In this document: positions 39,193-64,000 of the stretch, piece after piece
How positions within the stretch are numbered: the first letter of the stretch is position 1
Layout of the letters: each line of letters starts with the position of its first letter
Assembly (NCBI GenBank): GCA_013426185.1
Contig: CP058602.1
Location: 74,231 to 138,230 of the forward strand
Length of the DNA: 64,000 nucleotides
Source: Candidatus Woesebacteria bacterium
GTDB taxonomy: Bacteria > Patescibacteriota > Microgenomatia > UBA8517
Direction: 5' to 3'
Translations under genes and position numbers: made by a program
The notes under the pieces: generated by a model
Databases searched by the model: none
Told to the model about the DNA's origin: nothing
Seen by the model: only the letters and a program-made list of their open reading frames with translations

Positions 39193-39201
39193 TGTGGATA
39201 A
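39193..39201. promoter_or_regulatory. single consensus DnaA-box (TGTGGATAA) inside ORF-free AT-rich region
   Basis: seen in sequence; isolated, significance uncertain. Confidence 0.25.
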
Positions 39202-39390: not shown

Positions 39391-39659
39391 AATGAAAGCT
39401 GTTGGAGTAGGAGGTGCTCCCCCGGGTTTTTATTTTTTTATCCCGGGATTTTTATTTTTGAAATAAATTATTTTTTTATATTTTCTCTTTTTAAATTGTC
39501 TTAGGATTTTTTTATTTCCAAATTAAACCCGAAAAAGCAATCGATATTATAAGAAAGTGTCAAAAGTGCTTTTAGACCGTAATCACGGACAAAAAGGAAC
39601 TTGTTTTAGACGACCAGTTAATCGTCTAAACTGAGAAACCCCCTTTAAAATCGATTTGG

Positions 39660-40000
39660 TGAAGCCAGGTTTGAAGCAAATAAAGAGCAAATTACAAATT
39701 AAAAACAATATACAAATTACAATATACAAATTCTAAATTCTAATATCTAAATCCTAAACCCTGAACCAGAATAAATTCGATTCAGGGCAAGCAAATTCCA
39801 AATCACAAACAAATTAGGAACACTGAACTTAGTTGAATTATGGAAATAATGCATTCACCTGCATAATACATAATACAAGATACTAGATACAATCTTTCGG
39901 CTAGCTTCGACTGAATTCCGATAGTCGAAAGCTGATGGCTGATGACCGACAACCGACATCTGAAGTCTGACAGCTGATAGCCGATGTCTGATGCTGATTA
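39660..40000. repeat. mosaic intergenic repeat copy R10 (minus)
   Basis: module sharing. Confidence 0.9.
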
Positions 40001-40016
40001 GTGTCGCACAATCTTA

Positions 40017-40045
40017 TTGACAAGTTTGTGGGGGAGTTCTACAAT
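40017..40045 (+). promoter_or_regulatory. near-consensus promoter TTGACA-17-TACAAT, -10 ends 11 nt before xer ATG
   Basis: seen in sequence. Confidence 0.45.
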
Positions 40046-40056
40046 GAATTTAGCTA

Positions 40057-43636: not shown

Positions 43637-43679
43637 AAAAATAAGGCTATGTGAGCCTATCCAATTTTATCTTGAAGCA

Positions 43680-44260
43680 AGTTATAAAGCAAGAGGAATT
43701 CGGATATCGGATGTCAGACGTCGGACATCGGCTATCGGCTATCAGACTTCAGTTGTCGGCTATCGGAATTCAGTCGAAGCTGGCCGGAAGCTAGTATTTA
43801 GTATTTTGTATTATGTATTATGCAGGAGGGACGAGTAGAAAGTAGAATGTAGGAAGTAGTAAGGGTTTATAATTTCTACTGTATCCGTGTGCTAGTACAC
43901 GGACCAAACCCTTTAGGGGGCCAGCGGCTATTCTCTACTCTCTATTCTCTATTCTGTTTGTGATTTGAAAAATTAGATAATTGTGATTTGTTTAGAATTT
44001 AGATATTAGAATTTAGAATTTGTATCTTGTAATTTGGAATTTGTAATTTTCTCTTTTTTCTTTGTTCTATGTTCTTTGTTCTAACCTAGTAGGTAAAAGG
44101 CAAGAGTTAAAAGGTAAAAGGAATTCGAGTAGAAAGTAGAATGTAGTAAGTAGAAAGCAAAATTCTATAATCTATAATCCAAAATCCATAATCTAATCAT
44201 AAAGTTTTAGCTTTTGAGTTTTAAATTTTTAGTTAATTTGTTAACTATTGTATACTTATT
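43680..44260. repeat. mosaic intergenic repeat copy R11 (plus) carrying a ~100-bp unique insert (43862-43960)
   Basis: module sharing. Confidence 0.9.
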
Positions 44261-45043: not shown

Positions 45044-45684
45044 TGGCCACACCATGCAACTTATATGGGTCGCTGAATATGGTCGTAGCTGTGGGGGCCG
45101 GTATCAATAATCACGTATCACGAAGCAAGTATCAAGAATGGGTAAAAGGCAAGAGACTACAGCTATCGGATATCAGACATCAGATTTCGGCCATCAGAAG
45201 TTAGTAGAAAGTAGAACGTAGTAAGTAGAAAGCATTAATAAATAGTTAAAAGTTAAAAGTTAAAAGAATTTGGATTTCAGCTATCAGTTGTCTGCTGTCG
45301 GAGTTAATTGTTATCTTAATTCATAAATCTTAAATCCTAAATCTAGATTCTATAATCTGTTTGTAATTTGTTTATTACTTGTATATTGTTTGTATATTGG
45401 AATTTGTAATTTGGAATTTGCCTGCCCTGAATCGAATTTATTCTGGTTCAGGGTTTAGAATTTGGAATTTTATTCTCTAATCTCTAATCTGTATTCTGTA
45501 ATCTAATTTTTGACTTTTGACTTTTGAGTTTTAAGTTTTGAGTTTTGAGTTTTGAATTATATTTTTGACTTTTGAGTTTTAAGTTTTGAGTTTTGAGTTT
45601 TGAATTATATTTTTGACTTTTGAGTTTTAAGTTTTAAGTTAACTTCTAATTTCCCTTTTGTTCTCTGTTCTTTGTTCTATTTTA
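45044..45684. repeat. mosaic intergenic repeat copy R12 (plus; tandem-duplicated AT-array; last module overlaps hppA 3' end)
   Basis: module sharing. Confidence 0.9.
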
Positions 45685-47897: not shown

Positions 47898-48457
47898 TTT
47901 TCAAAAAAAAACAAACTCGTCAACTGCGAGTCTTGAGTTATTCTAGGAATATGTGTTTTTTTTGTCAAGAAGGAAAATTAGTCGGAGCTGGCCGAAAGAC
48001 AATATTGTATCTAGTATCTTGTATTATGTATTATGCAGGAAATACAAGTAGAAAGTAGAAAGTAGTAAGTAGAAAGTAGAAAGCAAAATTAATAAATAGT
48101 TAAAAGTTCAAAGTTAAAAGTTGGAATTTTTTGTTTGTAATTTGGAATTTGTGATTTGTAATTTTCCCTTTGTTCTTTGTTCTAACCTAGTAGGTAAAAG
48201 GCAAGAGGTAAAAGGTAAAAGGAATTCGAGTAGAAATTAGAACGTAGTAAGTAGAAAGCAAAATTCTATAATCTATAATCTATAATCCAAAATCCATAAT
48301 CTAATCATAAAAAGTTTTAACTTTTGAGTTTTAAGTTTTTAGTTAATTTGTTAATTTGTTAACTGTTAATTGTTATATTGTAATTTGTATATTGTTTGTA
48401 TATTGGAATTTGGAACTTGGAATTTGTAATTTTATTCTTTGTTCTTTGTTCTAATTT
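47898..48457. repeat. mosaic intergenic repeat copy R13 (plus)
   Basis: module sharing. Confidence 0.9.
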
Positions 48458-50461: not shown

Positions 50462-51088
50462 CTAAAGGTTGATAACCATTCTTGTCAACTGGAGTTTGAC
50501 ATTTGCGTTTGATTTTATGGCCAAAAGAGCTTGATTTGCGTGTATAAGACAACGCGATATTTTAGTATCCCTTTCTTTTTGGTAAATGGATTTTTCGCAA
50601 AATTGAATTAATCCTTCTAGAAATTCTAACGCTTCTTCCCTCTTTTTAATTTTATCAACATAAAGAAGTTGCAGACCCTTTTTTTTGTTAAGGAAAGCTA
50701 AATATTCAGGATTAATATCTTTATTTTCTTCTCTTTTTGAAGTAAGTTTTATTATCTGGCATCTTGAGATAACAGTGGGTATAACACTTTTTATATTTCT
50801 TGTTGTTAGAATAAAAATTATATTTGGCCCTGGTTCTTCAATATTTTTTAGAATAGCGTTTAAGGCTGGGAGAGAGGCTTTTTCTACTTCTTTAATTATT
50901 ACTGCCAGTTTTTGCTGATGTGAGAGTTTGGTTAATTCTTTTAATTCTCGAGCATCTTCAATTGTCTTAAGTTTGAATTCAGAGACAATTGCTTGGTTTT
51001 TTTTTACAATCTCATTTATTTTTTCCTCAATTCTTTTTTTATCAGTAGAGGCAATGATAAACGAGTTCATAAGTGGAATATACAACAT
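50462..51088 (-). CDS. holB: DNA polymerase III delta'-like subunit (short)
   Basis: ALNAILKNIEEP and SRCQ motifs, no Walker A. Confidence 0.55.
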   Translation of the reverse strand: MLYIPLMNSFIIASTDKKRIEEKINEIVKKNQAIVSEFKLKTIEDARELKELTKLSHQQKLAVIIKEVEKASLPALNAILKNIEEPGPNIIFILTTRNIKSVIPTVISRCQIIKLTSKREENKDINPEYLAFLNKKKGLQLLYVDKIKKREEALEFLEGLIQFCEKSIYQKERDTKISRCLIHANQALLAIKSNANVKLQLTRMVINL

Positions 51089-51450
51089 ATAAATTACAAA
51101 TTACAAATCACAAATTACAATATACAGATTCTAAATTCTAATATCTAAATTCTAAATCCTGAACCAGAATAAATTCGGTTCAGGGCAGGCAAATTACAAA
51201 TTACAAACAAAAAATTCCAACTTTTAACTTTTAACTTTGAACTTTTAACTATTTATTAATTTTGCTTTCTACTTACTACGTTCTACTTTCTACTTATATT
51301 TCCTGCATAATACATAATACAAGATACTAGATACAATCTTTCGGTCGGCTTCGACTGAATTCCGATAGCCGACAACTGAAGTCTCACAGCTGATAGCCGA
51401 TCTCCGATATCTGACATCCGATCTCCGAATTCCTCTTGCCACTTTTGGAA
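51089..51450. repeat. mosaic intergenic repeat copy R14 (minus)
   Basis: module sharing. Confidence 0.9.
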
Positions 51451-51471
51451 AAATGGGTTAAATTATTATTG

Positions 51472-53235
51472 ATGACAACTTCTGCTCAAATATCAACTAA
51501 AGCTAATCAGATTAATAATCAGGATGCTACTCTATCGCTTACTTTGGCTGATATCTTAGTGAAGCAAGGGTCAATAACCGAGGATAAAGCTAAGGAGATC
51601 AAGTTAGCTGAAATTCAGACTGGCAAAAACCAAGAGGCAATTGTTAAGTCTTTAGGAATAGTTTCGCCTGCAGATCTAGCTAAAGCGAAAGCTGCCTTGT
51701 TTAATATTCCTTTTATAGATTTGGCTAATGCTCCTGTTTCTCCTGAAGCTATGGCAATTTTGCCCAAGGAAATTGCTGAAAGATTTAAGGTCTTTCCTCT
51801 TTCTATTGATAAAGTCTCCAAGACATTGGATTTAGCGATGGCTGATCCTCTTGATCTTTTTGCTATTGAATTTGTTGAGCAGAAAACTAATCTTCGGGTT
51901 AGACTATATGCTTGTGATGAAGCTAAACTTGAGGAATTTATCACTGTTCGTTATGCCACTTCTCTTTCAAAAGAAGTAACGGAAGCTTTGAAAGATGTAG
52001 CTCCTGAAGTCAAGGAGGGTGCAAATGGAATAGCAGGAACTAAAGTCGGTTTTATTAAGGACGAAAAGATAGCAGAGATTGTGACCCAAATTCTTGATTT
52101 TGCTGTTCGAGCTAGAGCTTCTGATATTCATATAGAACCTCAAGAAAAATCAACTAGGGTTCGTTACAGAATTGATGGAATACTACAGGAGAAATTGACG
52201 ATACCTAAGGCTTTGCACAAAGCTCTTGTCTCAAGGATTAAGATCCTTTCTGGATTGAAGATAGACGAGAAAAGGGTGCCTCAGGATGGTAGGTTTAATT
52301 TTATGGGGGCTTCTGAAGATGTTGATTTGCGTATCTCTACTTTACCTACAGCTTGGGGAGAAAAGGTGGTTATGAGGCTTCTTAAAAAAACTGGTGGGGT
52401 ACCAGAACTACCAGAACTTGGTTTAAGGGGTCTTGCTCTTAAAAATTTGGAAACGGCAATACTTAGGCCTCATGGCATTATTATTATTTGTGGTCCTACT
52501 GGTTCTGGTAAAACTACCACTCTTTACTCTATTATTTCAAAAATTAATACCCCTAAAGTTAATATTGTTACTTTGGAGGACCCGATTGAGTATAAGATTC
52601 CTGGAGTTAATCAGGTGCAGGTTAATCCAGCTGCTGGTTTGACTTTTGCTTCTGGTTTGAGAGCTTTTTTGCGGCAAGACCCGAATATTATTCTAGTTGG
52701 TGAGATTCGTGACCGCGAGACTGCTGATTTGGCTATTCAAGCGTCTTTAACAGGTCATCTTGTCTTTTCTACCTTGCATACTAATGATGCGTCAGGAGCT
52801 TTTCCTCGTCTTTTGGATATGGGTGCTGAGCCTTATCTTTTGGCTTCTTCTATGACGGCTATTTTAGCCCAGAGGGTGGTCAGGAAAATTCACGAGGATT
52901 GTAAAGAAGAATATACCCCTGACCCAAAGGTGATTGAGGATATGAAAAATGTTTTAGGCCCTCTTTGGAATAAAGGTGAAGGAGAAGTTAAACTTTATCA
53001 TGGTACTGGTGATCCTGAATGTGGAGGGTCAGGGTACTATGGTAGAATTGGTATTTTTGAGGTAATGCCTGTTTCTGAAAAAATCAGTCGACTTATTTTG
53101 GAGCATAAGTCTGCTAGCGATATTGAGAAGGTGGCGCGTGAAGAAGGGATGATAACCATGAAGCAGGATGGCTATCTGAAGGTTCTTGAGGGAATTACTA
53201 CCATAGAAGAAGTCTTAAGGGTAGCCCAAGACTAA
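51472..53235 (+). CDS. pilB: Type IV pilus assembly ATPase PilB/GspE
   Basis: T2SSE_N domain, Walker A GPTGSGKTTT, C4 Cys; listed ORF begins with TTG at 51436 inside the repeat, ATG at 51472 preferred. Confidence 0.85.
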   Translation: MTTSAQISTKANQINNQDATLSLTLADILVKQGSITEDKAKEIKLAEIQTGKNQEAIVKSLGIVSPADLAKAKAALFNIPFIDLANAPVSPEAMAILPKEIAERFKVFPLSIDKVSKTLDLAMADPLDLFAIEFVEQKTNLRVRLYACDEAKLEEFITVRYATSLSKEVTEALKDVAPEVKEGANGIAGTKVGFIKDEKIAEIVTQILDFAVRARASDIHIEPQEKSTRVRYRIDGILQEKLTIPKALHKALVSRIKILSGLKIDEKRVPQDGRFNFMGASEDVDLRISTLPTAWGEKVVMRLLKKTGGVPELPELGLRGLALKNLETAILRPHGIIIICGPTGSGKTTTLYSIISKINTPKVNIVTLEDPIEYKIPGVNQVQVNPAAGLTFASGLRAFLRQDPNIILVGEIRDRETADLAIQASLTGHLVFSTLHTNDASGAFPRLLDMGAEPYLLASSMTAILAQRVVRKIHEDCKEEYTPDPKVIEDMKNVLGPLWNKGEGEVKLYHGTGDPECGGSGYYGRIGIFEVMPVSEKISRLILEHKSASDIEKVAREEGMITMKQDGYLKVLEGITTIEEVLRVAQD

Positions 53236-53282
53236 TTGTTTTTTTCTTTTGTATGGTGTAATCTGAATTAAATTACTGCCCT

Positions 53283-54347
53283 ATGCTTGATGTAATACAA
53301 CTTTTAAATCTAGCGGTTGAGAAGAAAGCTTCTGATTTGCATCTGATTGTAGGTGTTCCTCCTTACTTGCGTATCGATGGCCAGCTTTTGCCTGTGAATG
53401 AAGAACCTGTTGTTACCAGTGAGTTTATTGAAAAAGTAGCTACTACCGTTTTGAAACCTGAGCAATATGAGCGCTTTAAAGTTAATCGTGATCTTGATTT
53501 CTCTTTTTTTCTTTCTGATGTCGCTCGTTTTAGGGTTAATGCCTATTTTCAAAAAGGCAATTATTCTTTTTCTTTTCATGTTATTCCTTCTCAGATTTTG
53601 ACAGTAGAAGAATTAGGATTGCCTGAAGTTCTTCATTCTTTCACTCATCTAAGACAAGGATTTGTTTTGATAACCGGCCCTACTGGCCATGGAAAGTCTA
53701 CAACTTTAGCATCAATGCTCAACGAGATTAATAAAAATAGGAGCGAGCATATAGTGACTATTGAAGATCCAATTGAGTTTGTTATTCCACCAGTCAAATC
53801 TATCATCTCCCAAAGAGAAGTTGGTTTTGATACTCATTCTTGGCAGATAGCTCTTCGCTCTGTTTTAAGGGAAGATCCCGATGTGGTGATGATTGGTGAG
53901 ATGCGCGACTTGGAAACCATTTCTGCTGCTTTGACTGTGGCAGAAACAGGACATTTAGTTTTTGCTACTCTTCATACCAATTCAGCTTCTCAAACTATTG
54001 ATAGAATAGTTGATGTCTTTCCTGAAAATCAGCAAGGGCAAGTTAGGCTTCAACTCTCAAATACTCTAGAAGGAGTTTTCTCCATGCGTTTGGTTCCTGC
54101 TATAGGAGGAGGAAGAGTTGTTGCCTATGAACTTATGCTTGGAACACCAGCGGTTAGATCTGTAGTCCGTGATGGTAAAACTCATCTTCTAGATAATATC
54201 ATCCAAACTTCGCAAGAATTTGGCATGTCAACTTTAGAGATGTCTTTAGCTGAATTGGTAAAAACAGGAAAGATTTCTTTTGAGGTAGCTCAATCTTATT
54301 CCCTTAGAGTTGAAGAATTATCTCGTCTTGTTAAAGGTGAAAGTTAA
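53283..54347 (+). CDS. pilT: Twitching-motility retraction ATPase PilT
   Basis: Walker A GPTGHGKSTT, 354 aa. Confidence 0.85.
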   Translation: MLDVIQLLNLAVEKKASDLHLIVGVPPYLRIDGQLLPVNEEPVVTSEFIEKVATTVLKPEQYERFKVNRDLDFSFFLSDVARFRVNAYFQKGNYSFSFHVIPSQILTVEELGLPEVLHSFTHLRQGFVLITGPTGHGKSTTLASMLNEINKNRSEHIVTIEDPIEFVIPPVKSIISQREVGFDTHSWQIALRSVLREDPDVVMIGEMRDLETISAALTVAETGHLVFATLHTNSASQTIDRIVDVFPENQQGQVRLQLSNTLEGVFSMRLVPAIGGGRVVAYELMLGTPAVRSVVRDGKTHLLDNIIQTSQEFGMSTLEMSLAELVKTGKISFEVAQSYSLRVEELSRLVKGES

Positions 54348-54353
54348 AAAGCA

Positions 54354-55565
54354 ATGATGAGGTTTAACTTCAAAGCTAAGGATAAAAAAGGAAGATTAGT
54401 TGCAGGTTTGGTTGAAGCTAATGATGAAAAACATGCGGCATCTTTGGTTCGGGAAAAGGAATTGATTTTACTTTCTCTATCTCCTCAAAGGAAAGACAAC
54501 CTAAGTGTTATCATCAACAAATTTAAAAACAGGATTAAAGAGGATGATGTTTCTACTTTTACTCGTCAGCTAGCGACGATGGTCAACGCAGGATTGCCAA
54601 TTACTGAATTTTTGTTGATTTTGAAAAATCAGGCGCGAGGGGCAGCGCTTAAGGAGATGCTAAGCCAAATCTTGGCTGATGTCCAAGAGGGTCAATCGCT
54701 TTCTAGCGCAATAGGTAAGTATCCAAATGTCTTTTCCCCGACTTATATTGCCTTGTTGAAAGCGGGTGAAGCGGGAGGGGTTTTGGATAATGTTTTATCC
54801 CGTCTTTCTGATAATATGGAAAAGCAAGTTGAATTTAAAGGCAAGGTGAAAGGTGCGCTTATTTACCCTGTGATAGTTGTTATTGGAATGGTTTTGGTGG
54901 CAGCTATAATGATGATTTTTGTCATTCCCAAAATGCTAAGCCTTTATTCTGAGTTTGGAGCTGAGCTTCCGGGACCAACGAAAATTTTGATGTCTGTTTC
55001 CGGTTTTTTTGCTAAGTTTTGGTGGCTGATGTTAATCATAATTGCTTTTTTGATCAATTTCTTGATCACTTATCGCAAGACGAAAACCGGTAGAAGAAAA
55101 ATTGATGAGCTGATTTTGAAGATTCCGATCTTTGGCGACTTGCAGAGACAGGTGGCATTGACAGAATTAACAAGAACTTTGAGTCTCTTGGTTGGCGCTG
55201 GCGTTTCTATTCTTGAAGCTTTAGGAATTTTGTCGCAAATTTCAGGAAATGCTGTTATTGGTGATGCTCTTGAAGATAGTGCTAAACAGGTTGAAAAAGG
55301 TTTCCCTTTAGCCTACGCTTTTTCAAAACATCCCGAAGCTTTTCCTTATATTCTTTCTCAAATGGTGGCAGTGGGAGAAGAGACTGGGAAAATGAGCGAA
55401 GTTTTGGCTAAGGTTAGTCATGTCTTTGAGGTTGAATCGGATCAGAAAGTCAAGGCTTTGACTTCAGCTATCGAGCCGATTGTAATGGTGGTTTTGGGTG
55501 TTGGTGTTGGTTTCTTGGTCATCGCTGTTATTTTGCCGATTTATAATTTGACTAGCCAATTTTAG
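54354..55565 (+). CDS. pilC: Type IV pilus platform protein PilC/GspF
   Basis: two GspF domains, 3 TM, 403 aa. Confidence 0.85.
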   Translation: MMRFNFKAKDKKGRLVAGLVEANDEKHAASLVREKELILLSLSPQRKDNLSVIINKFKNRIKEDDVSTFTRQLATMVNAGLPITEFLLILKNQARGAALKEMLSQILADVQEGQSLSSAIGKYPNVFSPTYIALLKAGEAGGVLDNVLSRLSDNMEKQVEFKGKVKGALIYPVIVVIGMVLVAAIMMIFVIPKMLSLYSEFGAELPGPTKILMSVSGFFAKFWWLMLIIIAFLINFLITYRKTKTGRRKIDELILKIPIFGDLQRQVALTELTRTLSLLVGAGVSILEALGILSQISGNAVIGDALEDSAKQVEKGFPLAYAFSKHPEAFPYILSQMVAVGEETGKMSEVLAKVSHVFEVESDQKVKALTSAIEPIVMVVLGVGVGFLVIAVILPIYNLTSQF

Positions 55566-55617
55566 TTTAGAATTGGGTCTTGACAAAATTTTTCTAATTG
55601 TTTAAATTGAAACTAGT

Positions 55618-56178
55618 ATGAAATTATCTGCCAAAGGCTTCACCTTAATAGAGCTTCTCATAGTCATCGCGGTTTTGGGCATTCTGGCAGTTACTGTTCT
55701 TGCTGCTATTAATCCAATAGAACAGATTAATAGATTTCGTGATACTGGCTCTAGGTCCGATGCAGAGCAATTGATTGGAGCTATTGATAGGTTTTATGCC
55801 TCAAGAGGTTATTATCCGTGGCAGACGGTTGCTGGTACCGCTGGCGCTGCTGTTGCTTGGACGCAAGTCACTACAGCATGGTCGGGAGCTGCCACCACTT
55901 CCGTTTTGAGCCAATTATCTGCAGCAGGTACGAAGGAAATCAAGCAATCTTTTGTTAGTAGGATTACTGCACCTAACTATAATCCTTTATGGATCTATAA
56001 TAGAGGGCAGGCTGGTGACAGTTATTATATCTGTTTTTCACCTCAGTCTAGTTCCTTTAGAACAGAGGCTAACACAAGGTGTGCTAATACCTCTGGATCT
56101 GGTTTGCCAGTTGATTTGAGACCTATAGCAGGTACTGTATGCGGTAACACAATATCTCCATACTCTTGTCTTCCATAA
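55618..56178 (+). CDS. Type IV pilin (probable major pilin)
   Basis: class III signal KG|FTLIELLIVIAVLGILA, Glu+5. Confidence 0.8.
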   Translation: MKLSAKGFTLIELLIVIAVLGILAVTVLAAINPIEQINRFRDTGSRSDAEQLIGAIDRFYASRGYYPWQTVAGTAGAAVAWTQVTTAWSGAATTSVLSQLSAAGTKEIKQSFVSRITAPNYNPLWIYNRGQAGDSYYICFSPQSSSFRTEANTRCANTSGSGLPVDLRPIAGTVCGNTISPYSCLP

Positions 56179-56191
56179 TCTGTTATTTTCT

Positions 56192-57871
56192 ATGAGCTTG
56201 CTCAAGCAAAAAGCAAGTTTTTTGGTTTCAAAGCTTGGTAGTAGTTTTTTTTTGCTTTCTCTGGTTTTGATCTTGTCCTTTGTTTTTTACAGAATCTCGA
56301 TTAGATTTGAATATGTAAATCTAGATGATACTCTTTTGGTAAAGTATCGCCTTCTTTATATATTTAACCCCGCTAATATAATTAATTCTTTTAAAAGTAA
56401 TGTTATGTATCTTTCTGACAGTACCGCTTTTTATTATCGTCCGGTTCTTACAATATCTTTTATTTTAGATGCTTTAATTTTTAAAGATAATTTTTGGGGT
56501 TACCATCTAACTAACATACTGCTTCATCTTGTCTCTGTTGTTTTGTTCTATAGACTTATGCTTCGTCTTCGATTAGAAAAATATGTTTGTTTTTTTCTCA
56601 CACTAGTTTTTGCTCTTCATCCTGTTTTAATGCAGACTATAGTTTGGGTTCCTGGGAGAAATGACAGTCTTCTTTTTATTTTTTTGATTTCGGCTCTCTT
56701 TTATTTTTTGAATTATCTTGAATCATCTAGTCTGAAGGATTTTATCTTTTTTGTCTTTTTTACCTTTCTTGCGGTCTTTGTGAAAGAAACGGCAATAATG
56801 TTTTTGCCTGTCTTATTTCTTTTTATTTTTTTGGTTAGAAGAGACAAAAAAGCTTTTAAGAGATCTTTACCTCTTTTGGGCGTGTTTTTTTTAATGTTTG
56901 CCTTGTGGTACCTAATGGCTACTTCTTTTAGTGATAAGCAAGGTAGTTACTGGAGTTATCTGACAAGTACTAACTGGTTTGATGCTATACCAAAAACTAT
57001 AATACCGGGTTATCTGATCTATTTAGGCAAGATCTTTTATCCTTTTGCTCTCTCCGTCTTTCCTGTAGTCGATCTTCGAGATGCTAATATCTTTCCTGGT
57101 ATTGTAGCTTTTATCCTTCTTGTTTTTTCATTTTTATTTTTTGTTAAAGAGGGTAGAAAAAAGGTTTTTATTTTTGGTTTATTATGGTTTTTTATACTCC
57201 TTTTTCCAACTTTTATCAATCTTATGCCTGGAGAGCCGAATATAATTTACGAGCACAGACTCTATTTGCCCATTGTGGGTCTTCTAATTTCTTTTTCCCA
57301 GATCGAGTTTGTTAAAAGATCTCTCTCTAATAGTAAGGTGGCGTTTTTTTTATCTTTGATTATTACCCTTGTTTTTTTCTATGGTAATAGAAGGCATATA
57401 TTTAATTTCAAAGATAGCCTTTCTTTTTGGGAAAGTGCTTATTCCACTTCTTCTAAGCATTTTGTAACGGAAGTGGGCCTTTCGGGTGTTTATCTGTCTC
57501 GAGGTGATCTTGATAAGGCAGAGCCGGTCTTTAAGAAATTAGATGAGATAAAGCCAAATACGATAATATCACATTTGGGTTATGCTTCTTTGTTTTATCA
57601 TAAAGGGGAATATGAGAAGTCTTTGCAAGAGTTAGATGAGGTTTTGAAGATTAATCCGAAATTACCAAGAGCAATGCAATATATAGCATCAATCAAAGAA
57701 CATCAGGGTAAATATGATGAGGCTGAGAAATATTATCTTGAGGCTGTTGAGATTGATGACAAAAATGTAGATCTTTTAATGTCTTTGGTTTCCTTTTATG
57801 TTAAAAGGGGTAAAATTGATAAAGCTAAAGAAGTGTATAAAAAAGTTCAGGATATGGGAATTTCCTTTTGA
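56192..57871 (+). CDS. polytopic membrane protein (~12 TM) with C-terminal TPR repeats; GT-C/PMT-like candidate glycosyltransferase
   Basis: TM-rich N-terminal 400 aa + TPR block; located between pilin and pilD. Confidence 0.5.
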   Translation: MSLLKQKASFLVSKLGSSFFLLSLVLILSFVFYRISIRFEYVNLDDTLLVKYRLLYIFNPANIINSFKSNVMYLSDSTAFYYRPVLTISFILDALIFKDNFWGYHLTNILLHLVSVVLFYRLMLRLRLEKYVCFFLTLVFALHPVLMQTIVWVPGRNDSLLFIFLISALFYFLNYLESSSLKDFIFFVFFTFLAVFVKETAIMFLPVLFLFIFLVRRDKKAFKRSLPLLGVFFLMFALWYLMATSFSDKQGSYWSYLTSTNWFDAIPKTIIPGYLIYLGKIFYPFALSVFPVVDLRDANIFPGIVAFILLVFSFLFFVKEGRKKVFIFGLLWFFILLFPTFINLMPGEPNIIYEHRLYLPIVGLLISFSQIEFVKRSLSNSKVAFFLSLIITLVFFYGNRRHIFNFKDSLSFWESAYSTSSKHFVTEVGLSGVYLSRGDLDKAEPVFKKLDEIKPNTIISHLGYASLFYHKGEYEKSLQELDEVLKINPKLPRAMQYIASIKEHQGKYDEAEKYYLEAVEIDDKNVDLLMSLVSFYVKRGKIDKAKEVYKKVQDMGISF

Positions 57872-58677
57872 AAGAAATGATTTTACTTATTATTTTTATT
57901 CTTGGTTTAATTTTTGGTTCTTTTGTTTCGGCTGTTACCTATCGCCTTCCAAAAGGAATTTCTTTTATTTCAGGTCGGTCTTTTTGTCCTAATTGTAAGC
58001 ACAATATTTCTTGGTACGACAATATTCCTCTTTTTTCTTTTTTGCTTCTTCGCGGCCGTTGCCGGTATTGTGGCAAAAAAATTTCTTGGCGCTATCCCCT
58101 ACTTGAGCTAATAACAGGATTGGGGTTTGTTTTGATTTATTTGTCTTATCTCTCCTGTCTTGGACAAGGTCCGACCCTGTCCAGTAATTTTTTTTGCAGT
58201 CAGGCTGGAAGAATGGGATTTTTTACCCTTCCCTATTGGTTCTTCACTTTTATCTTGCTTCTTGTTGTTTTTGTCATAGATTTTGAACATAAAGTTGTCT
58301 TTGACAGCTTGGTCTTTATTCTTTTTATTTTTTTTCTTGCCACTTCCCTTTTCTTTTCGGATAGCACTTTGTATCTCAACTTGTTGGTAGCTTTTTCTAT
58401 TTCATTATTTTTCTTATTTTTGCATCTTTTTACCTCTGGTCGGGGTATGGGGCTTGGGGATGTTAAATTAGCCTTGCCTCTTGGTTTTTATCTTGGATTT
58501 CCTCTTAGTTTGGTTTGGCTTTTTCTTTCTTTCTTGACTGGAGCAGCAGTTGGAATTATATTGATATTATTGGGCAGGGCTAAATTTGGAAAGCCGATTC
58601 CATTTGGTCCTTTTATGATCTTTTCTTTTTGGGTGGTGTTATTTTTAGGCGAAAGAATAATTTTTTTCTTAAGATGA
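57868..58677 (+). CDS. pilD: Prepilin peptidase (A24 family)
   Basis: N-term CxxC...CxxC zinc motif, DiS_P_DiS + peptidase A24 TM core. Confidence 0.85.
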   Translation: MKEMILLIIFILGLIFGSFVSAVTYRLPKGISFISGRSFCPNCKHNISWYDNIPLFSFLLLRGRCRYCGKKISWRYPLLELITGLGFVLIYLSYLSCLGQGPTLSSNFFCSQAGRMGFFTLPYWFFTFILLLVVFVIDFEHKVVFDSLVFILFIFFLATSLFFSDSTLYLNLLVAFSISLFFLFLHLFTSGRGMGLGDVKLALPLGFYLGFPLSLVWLFLSFLTGAAVGIILILLGRAKFGKPIPFGPFMIFSFWVVLFLGERIIFFLR

Positions 58678-59324
58678 AAAGAAAAAGTGCTTTTACTTTA
58701 ATTGAGCTTTTGGTTGTGGTTGCTTTTTTGTCTTTGATGGTTTTGGTGGCTATTTTTGCTTTTAAAGGACCCTTGTTTAAGGGTTATGATGCGAGGAGAA
58801 AGTCAGATCTCAATAGGATTAAAATAGCTCTTGAAGAATATGAGAAAGATCATAATTGTTACCCTCCTTATTTGCCTTCTTGCAAGGGTTCAGATGCTGG
58901 TATTTTAAAATCATATATACCCATTATCCCTTATGATCCTCATACTAAAACTGATTATCTTTATTATCCTGATCCTACATCAACTTGTGCTAAATGGGCT
59001 TGGCTTTTTACCAATCTAGAATATACTGGTGATCCGAAAATTACAGAAATCGGTTGTCAAAACGGCTGTGGACCAAATCAAGCTTATGGTTTTAATTATT
59101 ATGTGACTACTCCTGGTGCTCCTGATCCTTTTAAGTCTGGTAGCGCCAATGTCCCCCCTGATGTCAGTGGTAATTATTATGGTTGTTTTTCTGGGGTTTG
59201 CCAACCAATAGGAGTTAACTCAGATACTCATCTACCAGTCTGTCAACCTAATTTTACTAGTTCTGATTGTCGTAACTTATGTCAAGACGAATCTGGTCCC
59301 ATAAACGAATGCAACTCTTACTAA
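58674..59324 (+). CDS. Type IV pilin-like protein, Cys-rich C-terminus
   Basis: SAFTLIELLVVVAF prepilin motif; listed ORF start 58629 overlaps pilD, ATG 58674 preferred. Confidence 0.75.
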   Translation: MKRKSAFTLIELLVVVAFLSLMVLVAIFAFKGPLFKGYDARRKSDLNRIKIALEEYEKDHNCYPPYLPSCKGSDAGILKSYIPIIPYDPHTKTDYLYYPDPTSTCAKWAWLFTNLEYTGDPKITEIGCQNGCGPNQAYGFNYYVTTPGAPDPFKSGSANVPPDVSGNYYGCFSGVCQPIGVNSDTHLPVCQPNFTSSDCRNLCQDESGPINECNSY

Positions 59325-59881
59325 GCTTAAAAAAAGATTTTTGGAAATTGTTTTTTTTGTTTTTTTTGGTTTCTCTAGCTTCTGCTTTGGGTTTTAATGA
59401 ATCTGACAAAAGAGAAAGAGATGTCAGAAGGAATGAAGATATTAGTAATATTGCCAAGGCAATAGAAGCTTACAGGCAGGCTTTTGGCTATTATCCTGAA
59501 TCAAAAGATGGAAAAATAGTAGCTTGCGCGGGTAATGATACCAAAGTTTTAAGGGATAAAAATGTTCTTGGAATAAGAGAAAAAGGAGCTAGCCGAGATA
59601 AACTGGTTGGTCTTGCTCCTTGTGAGTGGGGTCAAGATCCTCTAAGAGATGTTTCAGATGGTAATTACCCTGCTTTTTTAGACAAACTTCCTCAAGATCC
59701 AGAGTCTAGTCGTGGTTTTAGCTACCGCTACGATTTTGAAAACGGTCGTTACTTTGTTTATGTAGCTTACGAGACAAAAAGAATGCCTGACTATAGCAAG
59801 AATGTATTAAACAAAAAAGTTGCTTGTGGATACAAATTTTGTAATGGAGCTCGTACAAATGGCATTGAAATAGTCAAATAA
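59279..59881 (+). CDS. pilin-paralog-like protein lacking canonical prepilin cleavage motif
   Basis: hydrophobic segment then RDVRRNEDISNIAKAIEAYRQAFGYYP resembling neighbouring pilins. Confidence 0.5.
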   Translation: MSRRIWSHKRMQLLLSLKKDFWKLFFLFFLVSLASALGFNESDKRERDVRRNEDISNIAKAIEAYRQAFGYYPESKDGKIVACAGNDTKVLRDKNVLGIREKGASRDKLVGLAPCEWGQDPLRDVSDGNYPAFLDKLPQDPESSRGFSYRYDFENGRYFVYVAYETKRMPDYSKNVLNKKVACGYKFCNGARTNGIEIVK

Positions 59882-59903
59882 TGATGTTAATATGAATTAG
59901 ATT

Positions 59904-60467
59904 ATGCATAGCCTGCCTTATCAAGAAAGAAAATCTCCAGCTTTTACTTTAATTGAGCTTCTGGTTTCAATAACTATTTTAGGGATATTAGCCGTTGTTG
60001 TTTTGGGTGGTTTTAGATCGTCACAGATGAGATCGCGTGATGCAAAAAGGAAATCTGATTTAAAGCAAATTGCCAATGCTTTGGAGATGTTTTATTCAGA
60101 TAAGGGGTTTTATCCGCCTTCAACAGCTGATGGCAGAATTAGAGCTTGCCCTTACTATGCACCTCCCGATACTCCAATAGTTTGTAATTGGGGATCCATT
60201 GATTACACTAGCGAGTTTAAAGATGCTAGTAGCGGAGTGATCTACTTCAAATCACTTCCCAAAGATCCTTCGGGATTTTCTTATTATTATCGTTTAACCA
60301 ACGATGGCAAGGGATTTCAACTTTATGCACACCTGGAAAATGATCAAGATCAGAATTGCATTGATTCAAATTGCTCTATGGTGTCTGGGCTTCCTAGCGG
60401 TGTTAGTTGTTCTGGGGTTTGCAATTTTGCTATTACCAGTGCAAATGTCACAGCAAAAACTAATTAG
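59904..60467 (+). CDS. Type IV pilin-like protein
   Basis: PAFTLIELLVSITILGILA; RDAKRKSDLKQIANALEMFY. Confidence 0.8.
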   Translation: MHSLPYQERKSPAFTLIELLVSITILGILAVVVLGGFRSSQMRSRDAKRKSDLKQIANALEMFYSDKGFYPPSTADGRIRACPYYAPPDTPIVCNWGSIDYTSEFKDASSGVIYFKSLPKDPSGFSYYYRLTNDGKGFQLYAHLENDQDQNCIDSNCSMVSGLPSGVSCSGVCNFAITSANVTAKTN

Positions 60468-60476
60468 TATAATAAT

Positions 60477-60965
60477 ATGAGAAAAAGAAGCGGTTTAGGT
60501 TTTACCCTGATCGAGCTTTTGGTAGTTATTTCTATTATTGGAATTTTGGCAACATTGCTTTTGGCAAATTACAGCGCGACTCGTGAGAGAGCAAGAGATG
60601 CGCAAAGAAAGTCTGACTTAAGAAACATCCAGACAGCTTTGAGAATGTTTTATAATGATTTTAATAGATATCCTAGTTCCAGCAGTGGGCAGATAGTTGG
60701 TTGCGGGACCAGTGGTAATACTGTCTGCGGTTGGGGTGGAACTTTTTCGGCAGGTTCAACCAATGTTGTCTATATGAATATTCTTCCTAAAGATCCGCAG
60801 AGTAATAGGAGCTACAATTATGTCGCTGCAGGTGGTGAGTATACTCTTTCTGCGTGTTTAGAAAACAAGGGTGATGATAAATGCAAAAAGGATGCTAGTG
60901 GTAATTTGGTTTCTTGCTCTTGGATGTCAGGGGTTGATGGTTGTGTTTATGAGGTCAAGCCGTGA
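60477..60965 (+). CDS. Type IV pilin-like protein
   Basis: LGFTLIELLVVISIIGILA; RDAQRKSDLRNIQTAL. Confidence 0.8.
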   Translation: MRKRSGLGFTLIELLVVISIIGILATLLLANYSATRERARDAQRKSDLRNIQTALRMFYNDFNRYPSSSSGQIVGCGTSGNTVCGWGGTFSAGSTNVVYMNILPKDPQSNRSYNYVAAGGEYTLSACLENKGDDKCKKDASGNLVSCSWMSGVDGCVYEVKP

Positions 60966-61419
60966 TATGCTAGTATCAAGTATCACGAAGCAAGTGTCAG
61001 GAATAGGTAAAAGGCAAGAGGTAAAAGAATTCGGACATCAGACATCGGCCGTTGGCTGTCGGATGTTAGAACTTAGTCGAATCTAGCCGGAAGCTAGTAT
61101 TTAGTATTTGGTATTTTGTATTATGTATTATGGGGATAATGCATTTTCTTGCATAATACATAATTCATAATACTAAGTTCAGTGTTCCTAATCTGTTTGT
61201 AATTTGTTTATTGGTATTTGTATATTGTTTGTATATTGGAATTTGTGATTTGTAATTTTTGTTTAGGATTTAGATATTAGAAATTAGAATTTAGAATTTG
61301 TAGTTTGGTTTGCTGGTTCTTGAATGTAGTAAGTAGAAAAGTATTGTGATTTTTAAAAGTTTTGGCTAGACTTATTTTAGTTGGTTGTTGAGGTTTGGAA
61401 GTTGCTAGTTGTGTTTACA
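60966..61419. repeat. mosaic intergenic repeat copy R15 (plus) inside the pilin array
   Basis: module sharing. Confidence 0.9.
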
Positions 61420-61887
61420 ATGAAAATTAATAACAAAAAAAATTACAAAATGATTGGTTTTACCTTAATTGAACTTTTGGTAGTTATTGCTATTATTGGT
61501 ATTCTTGCTTCCTTAGCCTTGGTTTCCTATACTCGCTCGCAAAAACAGGCAAGAGACACAAGAAGGAAGTCAGATTTGAAACAGTATCAAGTTGCTTTGG
61601 AAAATTATGCTAATCAGAATAATGGTATATATCCTGTTAAAACGACTACTTTTCAAGCTGTTAGTTTTTGCAATTCTGGCCAAGCACTTTATGGGCTTTC
61701 TTGTCCAGACGATCCTGACGCTACAAGACATTATAATTATCTAAGTCTGAGCGACGGTTCTGAATATGCGCTTTGGGCTCAACTTGAGGCTTATCAAACT
61801 GGACAGTATTGGGTTGTTTGCTCAAGTGGTAAAAGCGGAGAAAGTACTACTCAGCCTTCAACTAGTAGTATTTGTCCGGTTCCATAA
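61420..61887 (+). CDS. Type IV pilin-like protein
   Basis: MIGFTLIELLVVIAIIGILA; RDTRRKSDLKQYQVAL. Confidence 0.8.
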   Translation: MKINNKKNYKMIGFTLIELLVVIAIIGILASLALVSYTRSQKQARDTRRKSDLKQYQVALENYANQNNGIYPVKTTTFQAVSFCNSGQALYGLSCPDDPDATRHYNYLSLSDGSEYALWAQLEAYQTGQYWVVCSSGKSGESTTQPSTSSICPVP

Positions 61888-61889
61888 TT

Positions 61890-62339
61890 ATGGTCTTATT
61901 TGATAACAAACATCTTAATGAAAAGTATCTTAAGGGTTTTACTTTAATTGAGCTTTTGGTGGTTATTTCTATTATTGGGATTTTGATTTCCCTTTCCCTT
62001 TTTGGAATTCAAAATTCGCGAAAGAGCGCAAGAGATGCTAAGCGCAAATCAGACCTTGAATCCATACGCTCTGCGCTTGAGATGTATAAAGCGGATAATG
62101 GCAGATATCCGTCTACTAGTTCTGGTATGAATGCTTCATCCCTCGCTATTTCAAGCTACATTTCTTCTGTTCCCACGGATCCTATTAGTGGAAGAATTTA
62201 TGTATATCGTTGCACTAATGTTAGTGGGTCTAATTGTCTTGCTTATGATTTATGTGCAGCTCTTGAGACAGGAAGCGGTTCCATATCGTGCGGCATAAGT
62301 TGTGGGGTAAGTTGTAATTATAAGACAACAAATCCTTGA
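61890..62339 (+). CDS. Type IV pilin-like protein
   Basis: KGFTLIELLVVISIIGIL; RDAKRKSDLESIRSALEMY; ATG 61890 preferred to TTG 61872. Confidence 0.75.
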   Translation: MVLFDNKHLNEKYLKGFTLIELLVVISIIGILISLSLFGIQNSRKSARDAKRKSDLESIRSALEMYKADNGRYPSTSSGMNASSLAISSYISSVPTDPISGRIYVYRCTNVSGSNCLAYDLCAALETGSGSISCGISCGVSCNYKTTNP

Positions 62340-62350
62340 AAAATGTTTTT

Positions 62351-62956
62351 ATGGAATTAAAAACTGCCTTTAAAAATCGAGGTTTTACTTTAATCGAACT
62401 CCTTGTTTTCCTTCTTGTTGTTTTCATCTTAGTTGGTCTTGGTTACGCCAACTTTCGTAAGTACGCTCAAAAACAGGCTTTATGGGCCGTGGCAAGGCAA
62501 ATAGAAGGCGACCTCCACCTTGCTCAAAGTTATGCAATGTCTGGTAAGGATGCATCAAGTTGTATTTCTGGAACCTACCTTTATGGTTATCAACTTTTTA
62601 AGCTTAGCGATCGTTCTTATAGTATTCGCCGTGTTTGCCGTAGCCCACAAGGTACCTTTATTTATAGCGATGTGTCTCCTTATCGTTATATACCAGAAGG
62701 ATTTGAGATAGATAGAAACTTCTCTTTAGTTTCGTTTCGATCAGTTGTTGGTGGAGTTGATAGCCCCGTGTCTATTAATATTAGACGTAATTTAGCACCA
62801 AGTTCTTATATTGTTATAAATGTTTTATCAACAGGGGCGATTTCTTTATCTTATAGTGATGGAGGATCTGCTATATTTCCTACTTCTACACCTACACCAC
62901 CCGGAGATGTGTTACCGCCACCTGGCATACCCATTAGTACGCCCATTTTGTATTAG
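62351..62956 (+). CDS. minor pilin/pseudopilin-like protein with Pro/Thr-rich C-terminus
   Basis: RGFTLIELLVFLLVV; ATG 62351 preferred to TTG 62336. Confidence 0.7.
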   Translation: MELKTAFKNRGFTLIELLVFLLVVFILVGLGYANFRKYAQKQALWAVARQIEGDLHLAQSYAMSGKDASSCISGTYLYGYQLFKLSDRSYSIRRVCRSPQGTFIYSDVSPYRYIPEGFEIDRNFSLVSFRSVVGGVDSPVSINIRRNLAPSSYIVINVLSTGAISLSYSDGGSAIFPTSTPTPPGDVLPPPGIPISTPILY

Positions 62957-62982
62957 TTTGTTCATTTTATAATGAGTGAATT

Positions 62983-63435
62983 ATGAGAAAAAATCTTTTG
63001 AATTCAGGGCAGTCTCTGATCGAGCTTTTGGTGGCTTTGACTTTGATAATGCTTGTAGTTGTGGCGGTTGTCGGTTTAGCGGCCGTTTCTATCAAAACTT
63101 CCTATTTTGCCAAAAGAGAAACAGCTGCCAAAAGATATGTTGAGGAGGCGATGGAATGGTTGAGGGAACAAAAGAAAAGTGATTGGACTGATTTCTTGTT
63201 TACTAAGTCAACTACCACGAGTCAGACGTATTGTTTTAACTTGTCGCCTGTTACTAGCTGGCCAGTGGTTGGTTCTTGTAGCGGCGCGACTTTGGGTGGA
63301 ATTTATAAGCGGGAGGCGACTTTATTAAGGTCGTCTGATAACAAAAATGTAACAGTGACGGTGGTTGTTTCTTGGAGCGATTCATCAGGAACCCATGACA
63401 CAAAATTGGTTTCTGTCTTTACCGCGCCTAATTGA
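62983..63435 (+). CDS. minor pilin/pseudopilin-like protein
   Basis: N-term GQSLIELLVALTLIMLVV. Confidence 0.65.
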   Translation: MRKNLLNSGQSLIELLVALTLIMLVVVAVVGLAAVSIKTSYFAKRETAAKRYVEEAMEWLREQKKSDWTDFLFTKSTTTSQTYCFNLSPVTSWPVVGSCSGATLGGIYKREATLLRSSDNKNVTVTVVVSWSDSSGTHDTKLVSVFTAPN

Positions 63436-63436
63436 T

Positions 63437-63913
63437 ATGTTTAAGAATAATCTGAAGGAAAAGGGATTTACTTTAATCGAGATGCTTGTTGTTATTGCTC
63501 TTTTTGCGGGTCTTGCTGTTTTGGTGGGTAGTATGGTGGGCTCATCCATGAAGGGAACGAAGAAAAGTGAATCGGTGATGAAAGTTAGAGCGGAGCTTGA
63601 AAATGCCGTTTCTATTTTAGAGAGGTCTTTAAGAGAAGCTAAAAAAGATTCGGTTATATGTAATGGCAATAGTACTGTTTCTTTTACTGATCAAAATGGT
63701 TTTAATGTTACTCTCAGTTGCTTGCCCCTTAGTAAGAACAGTGTTGAACTCATTAATAGTTCAAATATAAACTTAACAGCTTGTAACTTTGATTGCACTA
63801 ATCTCTCGAAAGGTGTTGTAGTTATAACTCTTACTGGCAGTAGTGCAAGTTCTAGTGGTGTTGAGGCTGACATTGCTACTGTTTCGGCGAGGGTTGTTTT
63901 AAGAAATTACTAG
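63437..63913 (+). CDS. minor pilin/pseudopilin-like protein
   Basis: KGFTLIEMLVVIALFAGLA; ATG 63437 preferred to overlapping 63365 start. Confidence 0.7.
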   Translation: MFKNNLKEKGFTLIEMLVVIALFAGLAVLVGSMVGSSMKGTKKSESVMKVRAELENAVSILERSLREAKKDSVICNGNSTVSFTDQNGFNVTLSCLPLSKNSVELINSSNINLTACNFDCTNLSKGVVVITLTGSSASSSGVEADIATVSARVVLRNY

Positions 63914-64000
63914 GCTGAATTTTTGTAATTTGGCTGGCTCTTGACTTTGCTTTTATTTATTTCTAAACTGAATTAATCTATGCGATACCCTGCCAAGCTC

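Follow-up and report, generated by a model that had tools for sequence, protein, structure and literature searches.

Type IV pili are regarded as the strongest candidate for the organelle that serves attachment to a host, motility and uptake of DNA in the ultrasmall, uncultured bacteria belonging to the Candidate Phyla Radiation (CPR). A survey of these organisms described PilB, PilT, PilC, PilM, PilN, PilO and PilD as co-localised, with an expanded set of pilins and no PilQ, and proposed that a CPR-enriched disulfide oxidoreductase folds the pilins (Méheust et al., 2019; PMC6744442). The complete genome of the Microgenomates bacterium Ch65 was reported to hold all type IV pilus genes in one locus without pilQ (PMC7143001), and for Saccharibacteria pilus function has been demonstrated experimentally (PMC9894109, PMC11623550). 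The locus considered here lies on the + strand, at about 51.4–63.9 kb, of a stretch of 64,000 nucleotides (nt) from Candidatus Woesebacteria (contig CP058602.1, positions 74,231 to 138,230 of the forward strand), which is referred to as the window. It very probably makes up the opening 12.5 kb of an operon-like locus of 15.7 kb, with which a Woesebacteria-like bacterium (Microgenomates, CPR) would encode a type IVa pilus that is complete and monoderm in style, and the tandem pilin genes that it carries are an old, vertically inherited and subfunctionalised set, which is neither diversifying nor recombining.

The open reading frames (ORFs) for PilB, PilT, PilC, PilD and nine proteins with a class III signal follow each other in a tight run, with intergenic distances of −4 to 52 nt and a single exception of 457 nt; genes for a PilX-like protein, PilM, a PilN-like and a PilO-like protein follow past the window edge. 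The order pilB-pilT-pilC-pilin-(transmembrane/TPR protein)-pilD, given in the initial annotation of this DNA, was confirmed from the ORFs and has Pfam and NCBIfam support. The core machinery is encoded as follows (lengths in amino acids, aa):

51472 to 53235, + strand: pilB, extension ATPase, 587 aa from an ATG start (the longest ORF begins at TTG 51436; 587 aa are also called in the close-strain contigs L085 and L086)
53283 to 54347, + strand: pilT, retraction ATPase (TIGR01420 PilT/PilU, 444.9 bits against a cutoff of 319.1; PF00437, E = 8e-45)
54354 to 55565, + strand: pilC, platform protein (PF00482 T2SSF in two stretches, E = 1.7e-60)
57877 to 58677, + strand: pilD, prepilin peptidase, 266 aa as called (the longest ORF begins at 57868)

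PilB combines PF00437 T2SSE (E = 1.3e-126) with PF05157 MshEN (E = 1.7e-15), and PilD combines PF06750 A24_N_bact (E = 6e-35) with PF01478 Peptidase_A24 (E = 6e-13). Curated cutoffs are passed by PilT, PilM, T2SSE, T2SSF, the A24 peptidase and N_methyl; the GspF and PilC matches of the platform protein in NCBIfam both stay below the equivalog cutoff. This is a type IVa pilus gene set, retractile and without an outer-membrane channel. When species-representative genomes were scanned with PilD and the ORFs of the loci found were labelled by BLAST, the best matches were metagenome-assembled genomes of Woesebacteria and Microgenomates (PilD at most 49% identical, PilB up to 75%), which bears out the earlier assignment to a CPR-type pilus.

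The window ends before the locus does. An exact-sequence look-up of the 150-aa pilin encoded at 62983–63435 returned two Logan contigs, L001 and L002. L001 agrees with the window at every one of the 2784 bases of the overlap (61217–64000, 100% identity), so that it stems from the same genome or a very close strain. Past the window it encodes a 287-aa PilX-like protein, PilM, a 173-aa PilN-like and a 238-aa PilO-like protein, with pilM, pilN and pilO lying 0.8–3.1 kb beyond the window end; after pilO follow, on the opposite strand, genes for a KH-domain protein, ribosomal protein S16, RNase III and NusB. PilM is well supported (PF11104, E = 9e-49; TIGR01175, 180 bits against a cutoff of 133). 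The PilN-like protein has a single transmembrane segment and begins MAEINLYPE; in its family the start N-L-x-P-x-E is invariant, with the consensus INLLPxE, which we take to be the PilM-binding signature of PilN, and PF05137 is matched by four of ten orthologues, so that the assignment to PilN is made from the orthologues and the N-terminal motif. The PilO-like protein also has a single transmembrane segment, and its family profile matches Myxococcus PilO (PDB 3jc8) with E = 1.4e-6. The 287-aa protein has a pilin-like N-terminus without Glu5, and PilX_N is matched by 9 of its 13 orthologues. Alignment profiles of the PilN-like and PilX-like families retrieved nothing relevant among PDB sequences.

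The initial annotation had found no pilM, pilN, pilO, pilP or pilQ and had taken this as a sign of a single-membrane envelope. The apparent lack of alignment components is an artefact, because the window ends before pilM, pilN and pilO, and the PilM-PilN-PilO subcomplex is present on L001; a window edge can thus produce a false signal of missing components. What stands is the absence of a secretin: none was found in the locus, in the 3.2 kb downstream through pilO, or among the 20 window ORFs of at least 316 aa outside the locus (a 301-aa ORF at 25282–26187 was left out), and the diderm combination of a secretin (PilQ or GspD) with PilP or GspC, as in type IVa pili and type II secretion systems with an outer membrane, does not occur in the DNA covered. 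A locus without a secretin fits a single-membrane envelope.

Ten pilin-like ORFs lie in the window, of which the following seven are GspG-like; a slash marks the predicted cleavage site, and a promoter-like site before the first gene is included:

55580 to 55608, + strand: predicted promoter-like site TTGACA-17-TAAATT, 10 of 12 consensus positions, 10 nt before pilA1
55618 to 56178, + strand: PilA1, candidate major pilin, 186 aa, leader MKLSAKG/FTLIE, 4 Cys (PF07963 N_methyl, E = 1.5e-7)
58674 to 59324, + strand: Pln2, GspG-like with a large disulfide-rich head, 216 aa, 11 Cys (N_methyl, E = 3e-4)
59327 to 59881, + strand: Pln3x, pilin-like without a prepilin cleavage site, 184 aa from a TTG start (called as 190 aa from ATG 59309)
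59904 to 60467, + strand: Pln4, GspG-like, 187 aa, 6 Cys (N_methyl, E = 1.5e-7; T2SSG, 24.9 bits against 21), own orthologue clade
60477 to 60965, + strand: Pln5, GspG-like, 162 aa, 6 Cys (N_methyl, E = 2.4e-7; T2SSG, 25.7 bits against 21), own clade
61423 to 61887, + strand: Pln6, GspG-like, called as 145 aa from ATG 61450 (N_methyl, E = 1e-6; T2SSG below cutoff), own clade, gene called in L001
61890 to 62339, + strand: Pln7, GspG-like, 149 aa, 6 Cys (T2SSG, 37.7 bits against 21; N_methyl, E = 6e-8), own clade

All of the ten except Pln3x carry a class III signal (Gly or Ala before the cut, then F-T-L-I-E). The nine prepilin-type genes announced after pilD are therefore nine pilin-like genes, of which only eight have the cleavage motif. 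In an alignment of the ten, seven share R-D-x-x-R-K/N-S/E-D-L/I, A-L/I-E-x-Y/F and Y-P and, further downstream, L-P-x-D-P, Y-x-Y and L-E. The post-transmembrane motif noticed earlier in seven proteins, and with it the homology of the paralogues with Cys-rich heads, is confirmed by this alignment; the motif is not private to the array but characterises the GspG/T2SSG family (PF08334), of which it forms the core. The PF08334 cutoff of 21 is passed by three (Pln4, Pln5 and Pln7), and PilA1, Pln2 and Pln3x match GspG in NCBIfam with E = 8e-7 to 5e-4 only, below cutoff. Pln7 is similar to GspG of PDB 5wda with E = 1.9e-12.

How old this array is can be judged from its relatives. The consensus order is pilB-pilT-pilC-PilA1-pilD-Pln2-Pln3x-Pln4-Pln5-Pln6-Pln7-Min8-Min9-Min10-PilX-like-PilM-PilN-PilO, and it is kept monotonically in 28 of 31 related loci (those with at least five pilin genes after pilD). 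A neighbour-joining tree, built with the GspG-like pilins of the window and of 12 loci in full synteny with it, gave one clade per array position across the 13 genomes. Pilins that hold the same position in different genomes have a median identity of 49.5%, paralogues of one genome have 29.7%, and the heads are 37–49% identical among orthologues versus 26% (median) among the window paralogues. Cysteines are conserved among orthologues, and any gain or loss concerns pairs of them, which is what structural disulfides would lead one to expect. Exact DNA words common to two paralogue genes reach 24 nt at most, and the longest always lie in the stretch coding for FTLIELL. Contigs from five independent samples are 99.1–100% identical, without a difference in gene content in the parts of the locus covered, and in L083, a genus-level relative with 67–77% DNA identity, the same order is found between gyrB/holB and the KH/S16/rnc/nusB genes. 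Neither are there signs of antigenic variation of the pilE/pilS type: all copies are full-length with their own N-termini, and silent cassettes are absent. Because of the positional clades, the conserved heads and cysteines, the lack of long shared words, the near-identity of strains and the synteny with L083, the array is seen as old and vertically inherited. Pln2 to Pln7 are most likely specialised low-abundance or accessory subunits and not variable copies.

Several records among the relatives (L004, L005, L009, L013, L016 and others) are titled uncultured Gammaproteobacteria, and their pilus loci are clearly Microgenomates-like. The labels are probably wrong, because PilB is 66–71% identical to that of the window and synteny is complete.

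Pln2 is the largest of the GspG-like paralogues. Its AlphaFold2 model has a predicted local distance difference test score (pLDDT) of 90.3 (65 homologues), and shows the lollipop fold of pilins. Its 22 best Foldseek matches in the PDB are without exception pseudopilins or type IV pilins, with CofA at the head (probability 1.00, E = 0.016). The Cys-rich C-terminal part of Pln2 is for this reason considered an elaborated pilin head without a recognisable added module. In the family, 10 of 12 recurrent Cys columns are at least 97% Cys (65 homologues). Residue 87 of the window protein is Tyr at a position that is Cys in 97% of the 65, which leaves 11 Cys and possibly one of them unpaired.

Pln3x has no Pfam match, and GspG TIGR01710 is reached only below cutoff (E = 5e-4). 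It nevertheless carries the RD..R..D, YP, P.DP and Y of its paralogues; the invariant residues that it has in common with them are D32, R35, D38, Y56, P57, P122, D124, P125, Y133, E149 and C172. A regular expression for the prepilin motif, run on the longest ORFs, matched none of 21 positional orthologues (ORFs with Pln3x as best BLAST match), and in 11 database homologues read by eye no GFTLIE motif was seen; many orthologues start M-K-x-F-T-K-x-E with no Gly at −1, and in the orthologue of L027 a site resembling G/MTLPEF was noticed by eye. The AlphaFold2 model (pLDDT 82) has the lollipop shape of pilins, with a long N-terminal helix and a β head, and the top-ranked Foldseek matches in the PDB are pilins, all weak (E at least 0.4). 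From its sequence Pln3x is probably uncleavable at the canonical site and would either stay membrane-anchored or enter the fibre unprocessed. Pln4, Pln6 and Pln7 match ComP_DUS, a DNA-receptor pilin, but so far below cutoff that the matches were not accepted as a sign of DNA binding.

The array ends with three genes, which had been suspected to encode minor pilins or pseudopilins, and whose best matches, though weak, are indeed of this kind:

62351 to 62956, + strand: Min8, GspH/FimU/ComGD-like, 201 aa as called (N_methyl, E = 1.2e-5), position kept in 29 loci
62983 to 63435, + strand: Min9, PilV/GspI/ComGE-like, 150 aa, G/QSLIE (N_methyl, E = 1.6e-3), exact sequence on L001 and L002
63395 to 63913, + strand: Min10, GspJ/PilW-like, 172 aa as called (N_methyl, E = 3.4e-6); the leader may start at ATG 63437

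In NCBIfam the best matches are PRK10506, ComGD and GspH for Min8, ComGE, PilV and GspI for Min9, and GspJ TIGR01711 (E = 3.2e-9) for Min10. Min8, Min9 and Min10, followed by the PilX_N-type protein, match the canonical order H-I-J-K, and from their sequences look like a predicted tip set.

PilA1 shows the usual marks of a major pilin. It is the richest of the pilins in Gly, Ala, Ser and Thr (40%), with a Ser/Thr-rich stretch at mature residues 61–110, and it matches PDB pilins of Geobacter, Neisseria and Pseudomonas. In L083 a comparable TTGACA-N-TATAAA stands just 5′ of pilA1. Consensus scans counted 14 terminators, close to the 10.9 of shuffled sequence, and 47 promoters, modestly more than the 34 of shuffled sequence; only the promoter-like site of pilA1 is used here, because it recurs in L083. 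PilA1 is also the least uniform pilin among relatives, occurring in two sequence types and in tandem copies in L003 and L009.

Between pilA1 and pilD lies the gene that had been called a transmembrane/TPR protein:

56192 to 57871, + strand: putative pilin glycosyltransferase, 559 aa, GT-C class with TPR at the C-terminus (PMT_2 and TPR), 13 nt after pilA1 and overlapping pilD by 4 nt

The TPR part of the earlier description holds (four to five repeats at residues 430–555), and the remainder is to be corrected to a GT-C glycosyltransferase, as PF13231 PMT_2 is matched with 39.9 bits against a cutoff of 26.1. The protein has about 11–12 hydrophobic segments and a DD at residues 45–46 following the first transmembrane segment. 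Orthologues occupy the same slot in L012 (PMT_2 and TPR) and in L083 to L087. In other relatives with the same PilA1 type the slot holds different enzymes, which form small glycosylation islands. L003 has a TMEM260-like GT-C, a GT4, a GT2 and a methyltransferase there (L003 3472–8670), L005 a TMEM260-like GT-C beside an IS200-like transposase (L005 7080–9833), and L040 a 609-aa TPR protein with a weak match to Wzy_C (27.0 bits against a Pfam cutoff of 31.7; L040 6566–9949), presumably the family of TfpO and PglL. Of the loci with this type of PilA1, 5 of 16 have a glycosyltransferase in the slot, and of those with the other type none of 18 does (Fisher p = 0.016, uncorrected for shared ancestry).

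In Pseudomonas aeruginosa the pilin glycosyltransferase TfpW is a GT-C enzyme with 11 transmembrane helices, a DDx motif and C-terminal TPR, encoded directly after pilA, and the gene for the oligosaccharyltransferase TfpO also directly follows pilA (bioRxiv 10.1101/2020.04.19.049825). The 559-aa protein shares with TfpW the GT-C class, about 11 transmembrane helices, a DD motif after the first of them, the C-terminal TPR and a gene just 3′ of the candidate major pilin. Because architecture and neighbourhood match, it is read as a TfpW-like pilin O-glycosyltransferase, and by this analogy the enzyme most likely uses a polyprenyl-phosphate sugar to O-glycosylate PilA1 on the outer side of the membrane. 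It differs from TfpW in that its Pfam family is PMT_2 (protein O-mannosyltransferase/ArnT-like) and not Emb-like, and in that the organism has no outer membrane.

Taken together, these components suggest how the pilus would work. The nine prepilins would be cleaved by PilD, and Pln3x would be left uncleaved. Min8, Min9, Min10 and the PilX-like protein would form a tip complex of the GspH/I/J/K type that primes assembly on PilC and PilMNO; PilB would then polymerise chiefly PilA1, glycosylated outside the membrane, with Pln2 and Pln4 to Pln7 built in as subunits of specialised function, whose heads are conserved and braced by disulfides, and PilT would retract the fibre. By analogy with the experiments on Saccharibacteria, such a retractile fibre would likely serve host-cell attachment, twitching or DNA uptake.

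It should be noted, however, that several points weigh against this picture. PilB scores 557 bits against TIGR02538 PilB and 559 bits against GspE, each under its equivalog cutoff, so that the extension ATPase may belong to either subfamily. The GspH, GspI and GspJ assignments of Min8 to Min10 all lie under the curated cutoffs, and the PilN-like and PilX-like proteins of the window genome itself have no direct match in Pfam or NCBIfam. The search for a secretin covered the 64-kb window and the adjoining contig, and a gene for one may lie elsewhere in the genome. The best Foldseek E value to solved pilins, 0.016, is not significant. The role of PilA1 as major pilin is inferred solely from its position and the consensus promoter match. 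As to its glycosylation, the link between glycosyltransferase and pilin is one of gene neighbourhood alone, the slot lacks such an enzyme in 11 of the 16 loci that share the PilA1 type, the loci counted are related by descent and so not independent of each other, and PMT_2/TPR proteins could target other envelope proteins instead.

There are also other ways to read the locus. One machine might make several fibres, at least two of the seven GspG-like pilins being major subunits of a heteropolymer or of alternative filaments assembled via PilB, PilC and PilMNO. Pln4 to Pln7 have the size of major pilins (133–174 aa mature), canonical signals and conservation over long distances, and precedents exist in a heteropolymeric monoderm pilus (cited in PMC11623550) and in the two filament types of TM7x (PMC11623550). 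However, within the array the promoter-like site that recurs in the relative is found only at pilA1, and the spacing of Pln2 to Pln7 (−4 to 22 nt) is like that of minor-pilin operons, so that we consider several fibres unlikely.

The genes could also specify a short, non-retractile ComG or type II secretion pseudopilus for DNA uptake or protein export and not a surface pilus. The pilins are GspG-like (PF08334; PDB GspG, E = 2e-12), the ATPase and the platform protein score as well against GspE and GspF as against PilB and PilC, the minor pilins weakly match ComGD/GE/GF and GspH/I/J, and CPR bacteria are described as naturally competent (PMC10187176). Against this stand the retraction ATPase of the PilT family, which exceeds its cutoff, the PilM, PilN-like, PilO-like and PilX_N-type proteins in place of GspC, GspL and GspM, and the absence of GspD in the DNA covered. 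In addition, the Com scores are low (ComGA 258 bits against 300, ComGB 158 against 240, ComGC at most 20 against 75), and the locus is like CPR loci that comparative genomics has described and drawn as type IV pili (PMC6744442). DNA uptake is in any case compatible with a type IVa pilus and does not need a separate system. A pseudopilus is therefore very unlikely.

The initial annotation had proposed that the tandem genes diversify as adhesins or antigens and that the internal repeat could promote recombination among paralogues. This is extremely improbable. In its favour, paralogue heads are less alike than stems (median 26% versus 39%), PilA1 varies among relatives and one repeat copy does lie inside the array. 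Against it, each position forms its own clade of ancient orthologues with 12 other genomes, heads and Cys pairs are conserved, shared words are confined to the FTLIELL stretch, the five samples agree in gene content where covered, truncated or silent cassettes are absent, and L083, which lacks the repeat, keeps the order.

The repeat in question, noted before at 60966–61419, is indeed a copy of a genome-wide family, which extends over 14 large intergenic gaps of the window. In twelve of these the spacer is a mosaic in which 7-nt units are repeated a few times each, and the lag-7 base-match is 0.51–0.61, whereas coding DNA and the other lags give about 0.3; together the 14 gaps amount to 7.3 kb, or 11.5% of the window. 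They are, without assigned strand:

6119 to 6558: mosaic spacer, lag-7 signal
13447 to 13764: mosaic spacer, lag-7 signal
19994 to 20553: gap with weaker lag-7 signal
24818 to 25281: mosaic spacer, lag-7 signal
26188 to 26627: mosaic spacer, lag-7 signal
29801 to 30062: mosaic spacer, lag-7 signal
31804 to 32280: mosaic spacer, lag-7 signal
33309 to 33932: mosaic spacer, lag-7 signal
38930 to 40056: gap with weaker lag-7 signal
43637 to 44260: mosaic spacer, lag-7 signal
45044 to 45638: mosaic spacer, lag-7 signal
47898 to 48457: mosaic spacer, lag-7 signal
51089 to 51471: mosaic spacer between the holB-like gene and pilB, families D1, D6–D8, D13, D14 and D18; lag-7 match 0.56 versus 0.28–0.29 at neighbouring lags
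60966 to 61422: mosaic spacer between Pln5 and Pln6, families D5, D6, D12, D15, D17 and D19, inverted pair I12; 7-nt units, lag-7 match 0.52

The units vary (TCCGATA, AAGTAGT, TTTTGAG, ATTCTAA and TTGTATT are examples), copies occur in both orientations with arms of up to 205 nt that match to 95–98%, and the abundance of such spacers is unusual for a small, dense CPR genome. An Rfam scan of 50900–64000 gave no family, the repeat core TGTATTATGTATTATG was without a match in 82 related loci, and a search of the literature on heptamer intergenic repeats in Microgenomates yielded nothing specific. L083 has a gap of 8 nt where the window has the spacer between Pln5 and Pln6, but a similar spacer separates its pilC from its pilA1. 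The heptad spacers of L083 are at 5976–6351 and 19201–19651, and L005 has one at 1801–2301, upstream of pilB; the units differ. The sites that hold spacers in the window have none in L083, from which it appears that the spacers are mobile or of independent origin. The close-strain short-read contigs L085, L086, L087, L001 and L002 end inside spacers (at about 51327–51357 and about 61035–61217), and the tail of L086 switches to another repeat module, which may be strain-level mosaic variation or an assembly chimera. Being the single copy within the array, the spacer at 60966–61422 cannot mediate exchange among the paralogues; the recombination role once ascribed to it thus falls away, and it is regarded as a separate feature of the genome that happens to interrupt the operon.

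In the same window a tyrosine recombinase (Phage_integrase with SAM-like N-domain, XerC/D-like; 40057–41007) adjoins the 1.1-kb gap at 38930–40056, which holds a partial spacer copy. A membrane H+-pyrophosphatase (45639–47897, − strand; E = 4e-224) and a PGA_cap capsule-synthesis-like protein (6559–7545, + strand) are also encoded there.

CPR pilus loci without PilQ have already been published, and little of what this one shows is new in kind; its use lies in being a clean and complete reference for the Woesebacteria-type operon. Modestly new are the six additional GspG-like paralogues, which keep a fixed order and are orthologous position by position, the Pln3x family, which is uncleavable, and the glycosyltransferase slot by pilA1, which varies in content and here holds an enzyme of TfpW architecture; a search of terms and abstracts in the cited CPR papers did not find these three points. 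The likeness of the last three pilins and the PilX-like protein to a tip set of the GspH/I/J/K type may be added to them. The conserved pilin set redirects the search for host specificity, for which better candidates are PilA1, variable as it is and next to the glycosyltransferase slot, and the PilX-like protein of the predicted tip. One could go further and see in the Microgenomates pilus a structure of complex composition, built from a fixed and ancient set of seven GspG-like pilins, in which Pln3x, having lost its cleavage site, would serve unprocessed as a membrane-anchored or terminal subunit and the major pilin would be decorated by interchangeable GT-C cassettes placed between pilA1 and pilD. 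This generalisation is unlikely; if true, the lineage would have elaborated the type IV pilus in a way of its own that is tied to host recognition.

How, then, does the retractile monoderm pilus proposed here compare with known systems? From the CPR loci described in PMC6744442 it differs in nothing fundamental: the component list is the same, co-localised and without PilQ, and the Cys-rich pilins fit the CPR-enriched disulfide oxidoreductase. With Ch65 it shares the single locus with major and minor pilins (PMC7143001). T4P-1 and T4P-2 of the saccharibacterium TM7x are described with a small major pilin, many minor pilins homologous to type II secretion pseudopilins and a large PilX-type candidate for the tip, and also with one pilin with a non-canonical signal peptide and predicted O-glycosylation of pilins (PMC11623550), in all of which they resemble the present locus. 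TM7x differs in that its 12 pilins are spread over four loci and two systems (PMC11623550), whereas here there is one locus, and here a glycosyltransferase gene is physically linked to pilA1.

The type IVa pili of monoderm Firmicutes (Clostridium, Streptococcus sanguinis; Melville and Craig, 2013, as cited in PMC6744442) are similar in having PilB, PilT, PilC, PilD, PilM, PilN and PilO, a multi-pilin operon and no secretin, and PilA1 of C. difficile is among the top structural matches of the Pln2 and Pln3x models. The present locus differs from them in its 11 pilin genes (the PilX-like one included), in the GspG-like globular domains and in that sequence similarity is insignificant. To GspG itself (PF08334; PDB 5wda) the seven paralogues are linked by the core RDxxRKxDL, ALExY, YP and LPxDP, and three of them pass the Pfam cutoff. 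However, genes for GspC, GspD, GspL and GspM, which belong to type II secretion, are absent here, PilT and PilMNO are present, and the heads bear two to five disulfides more than GspG.

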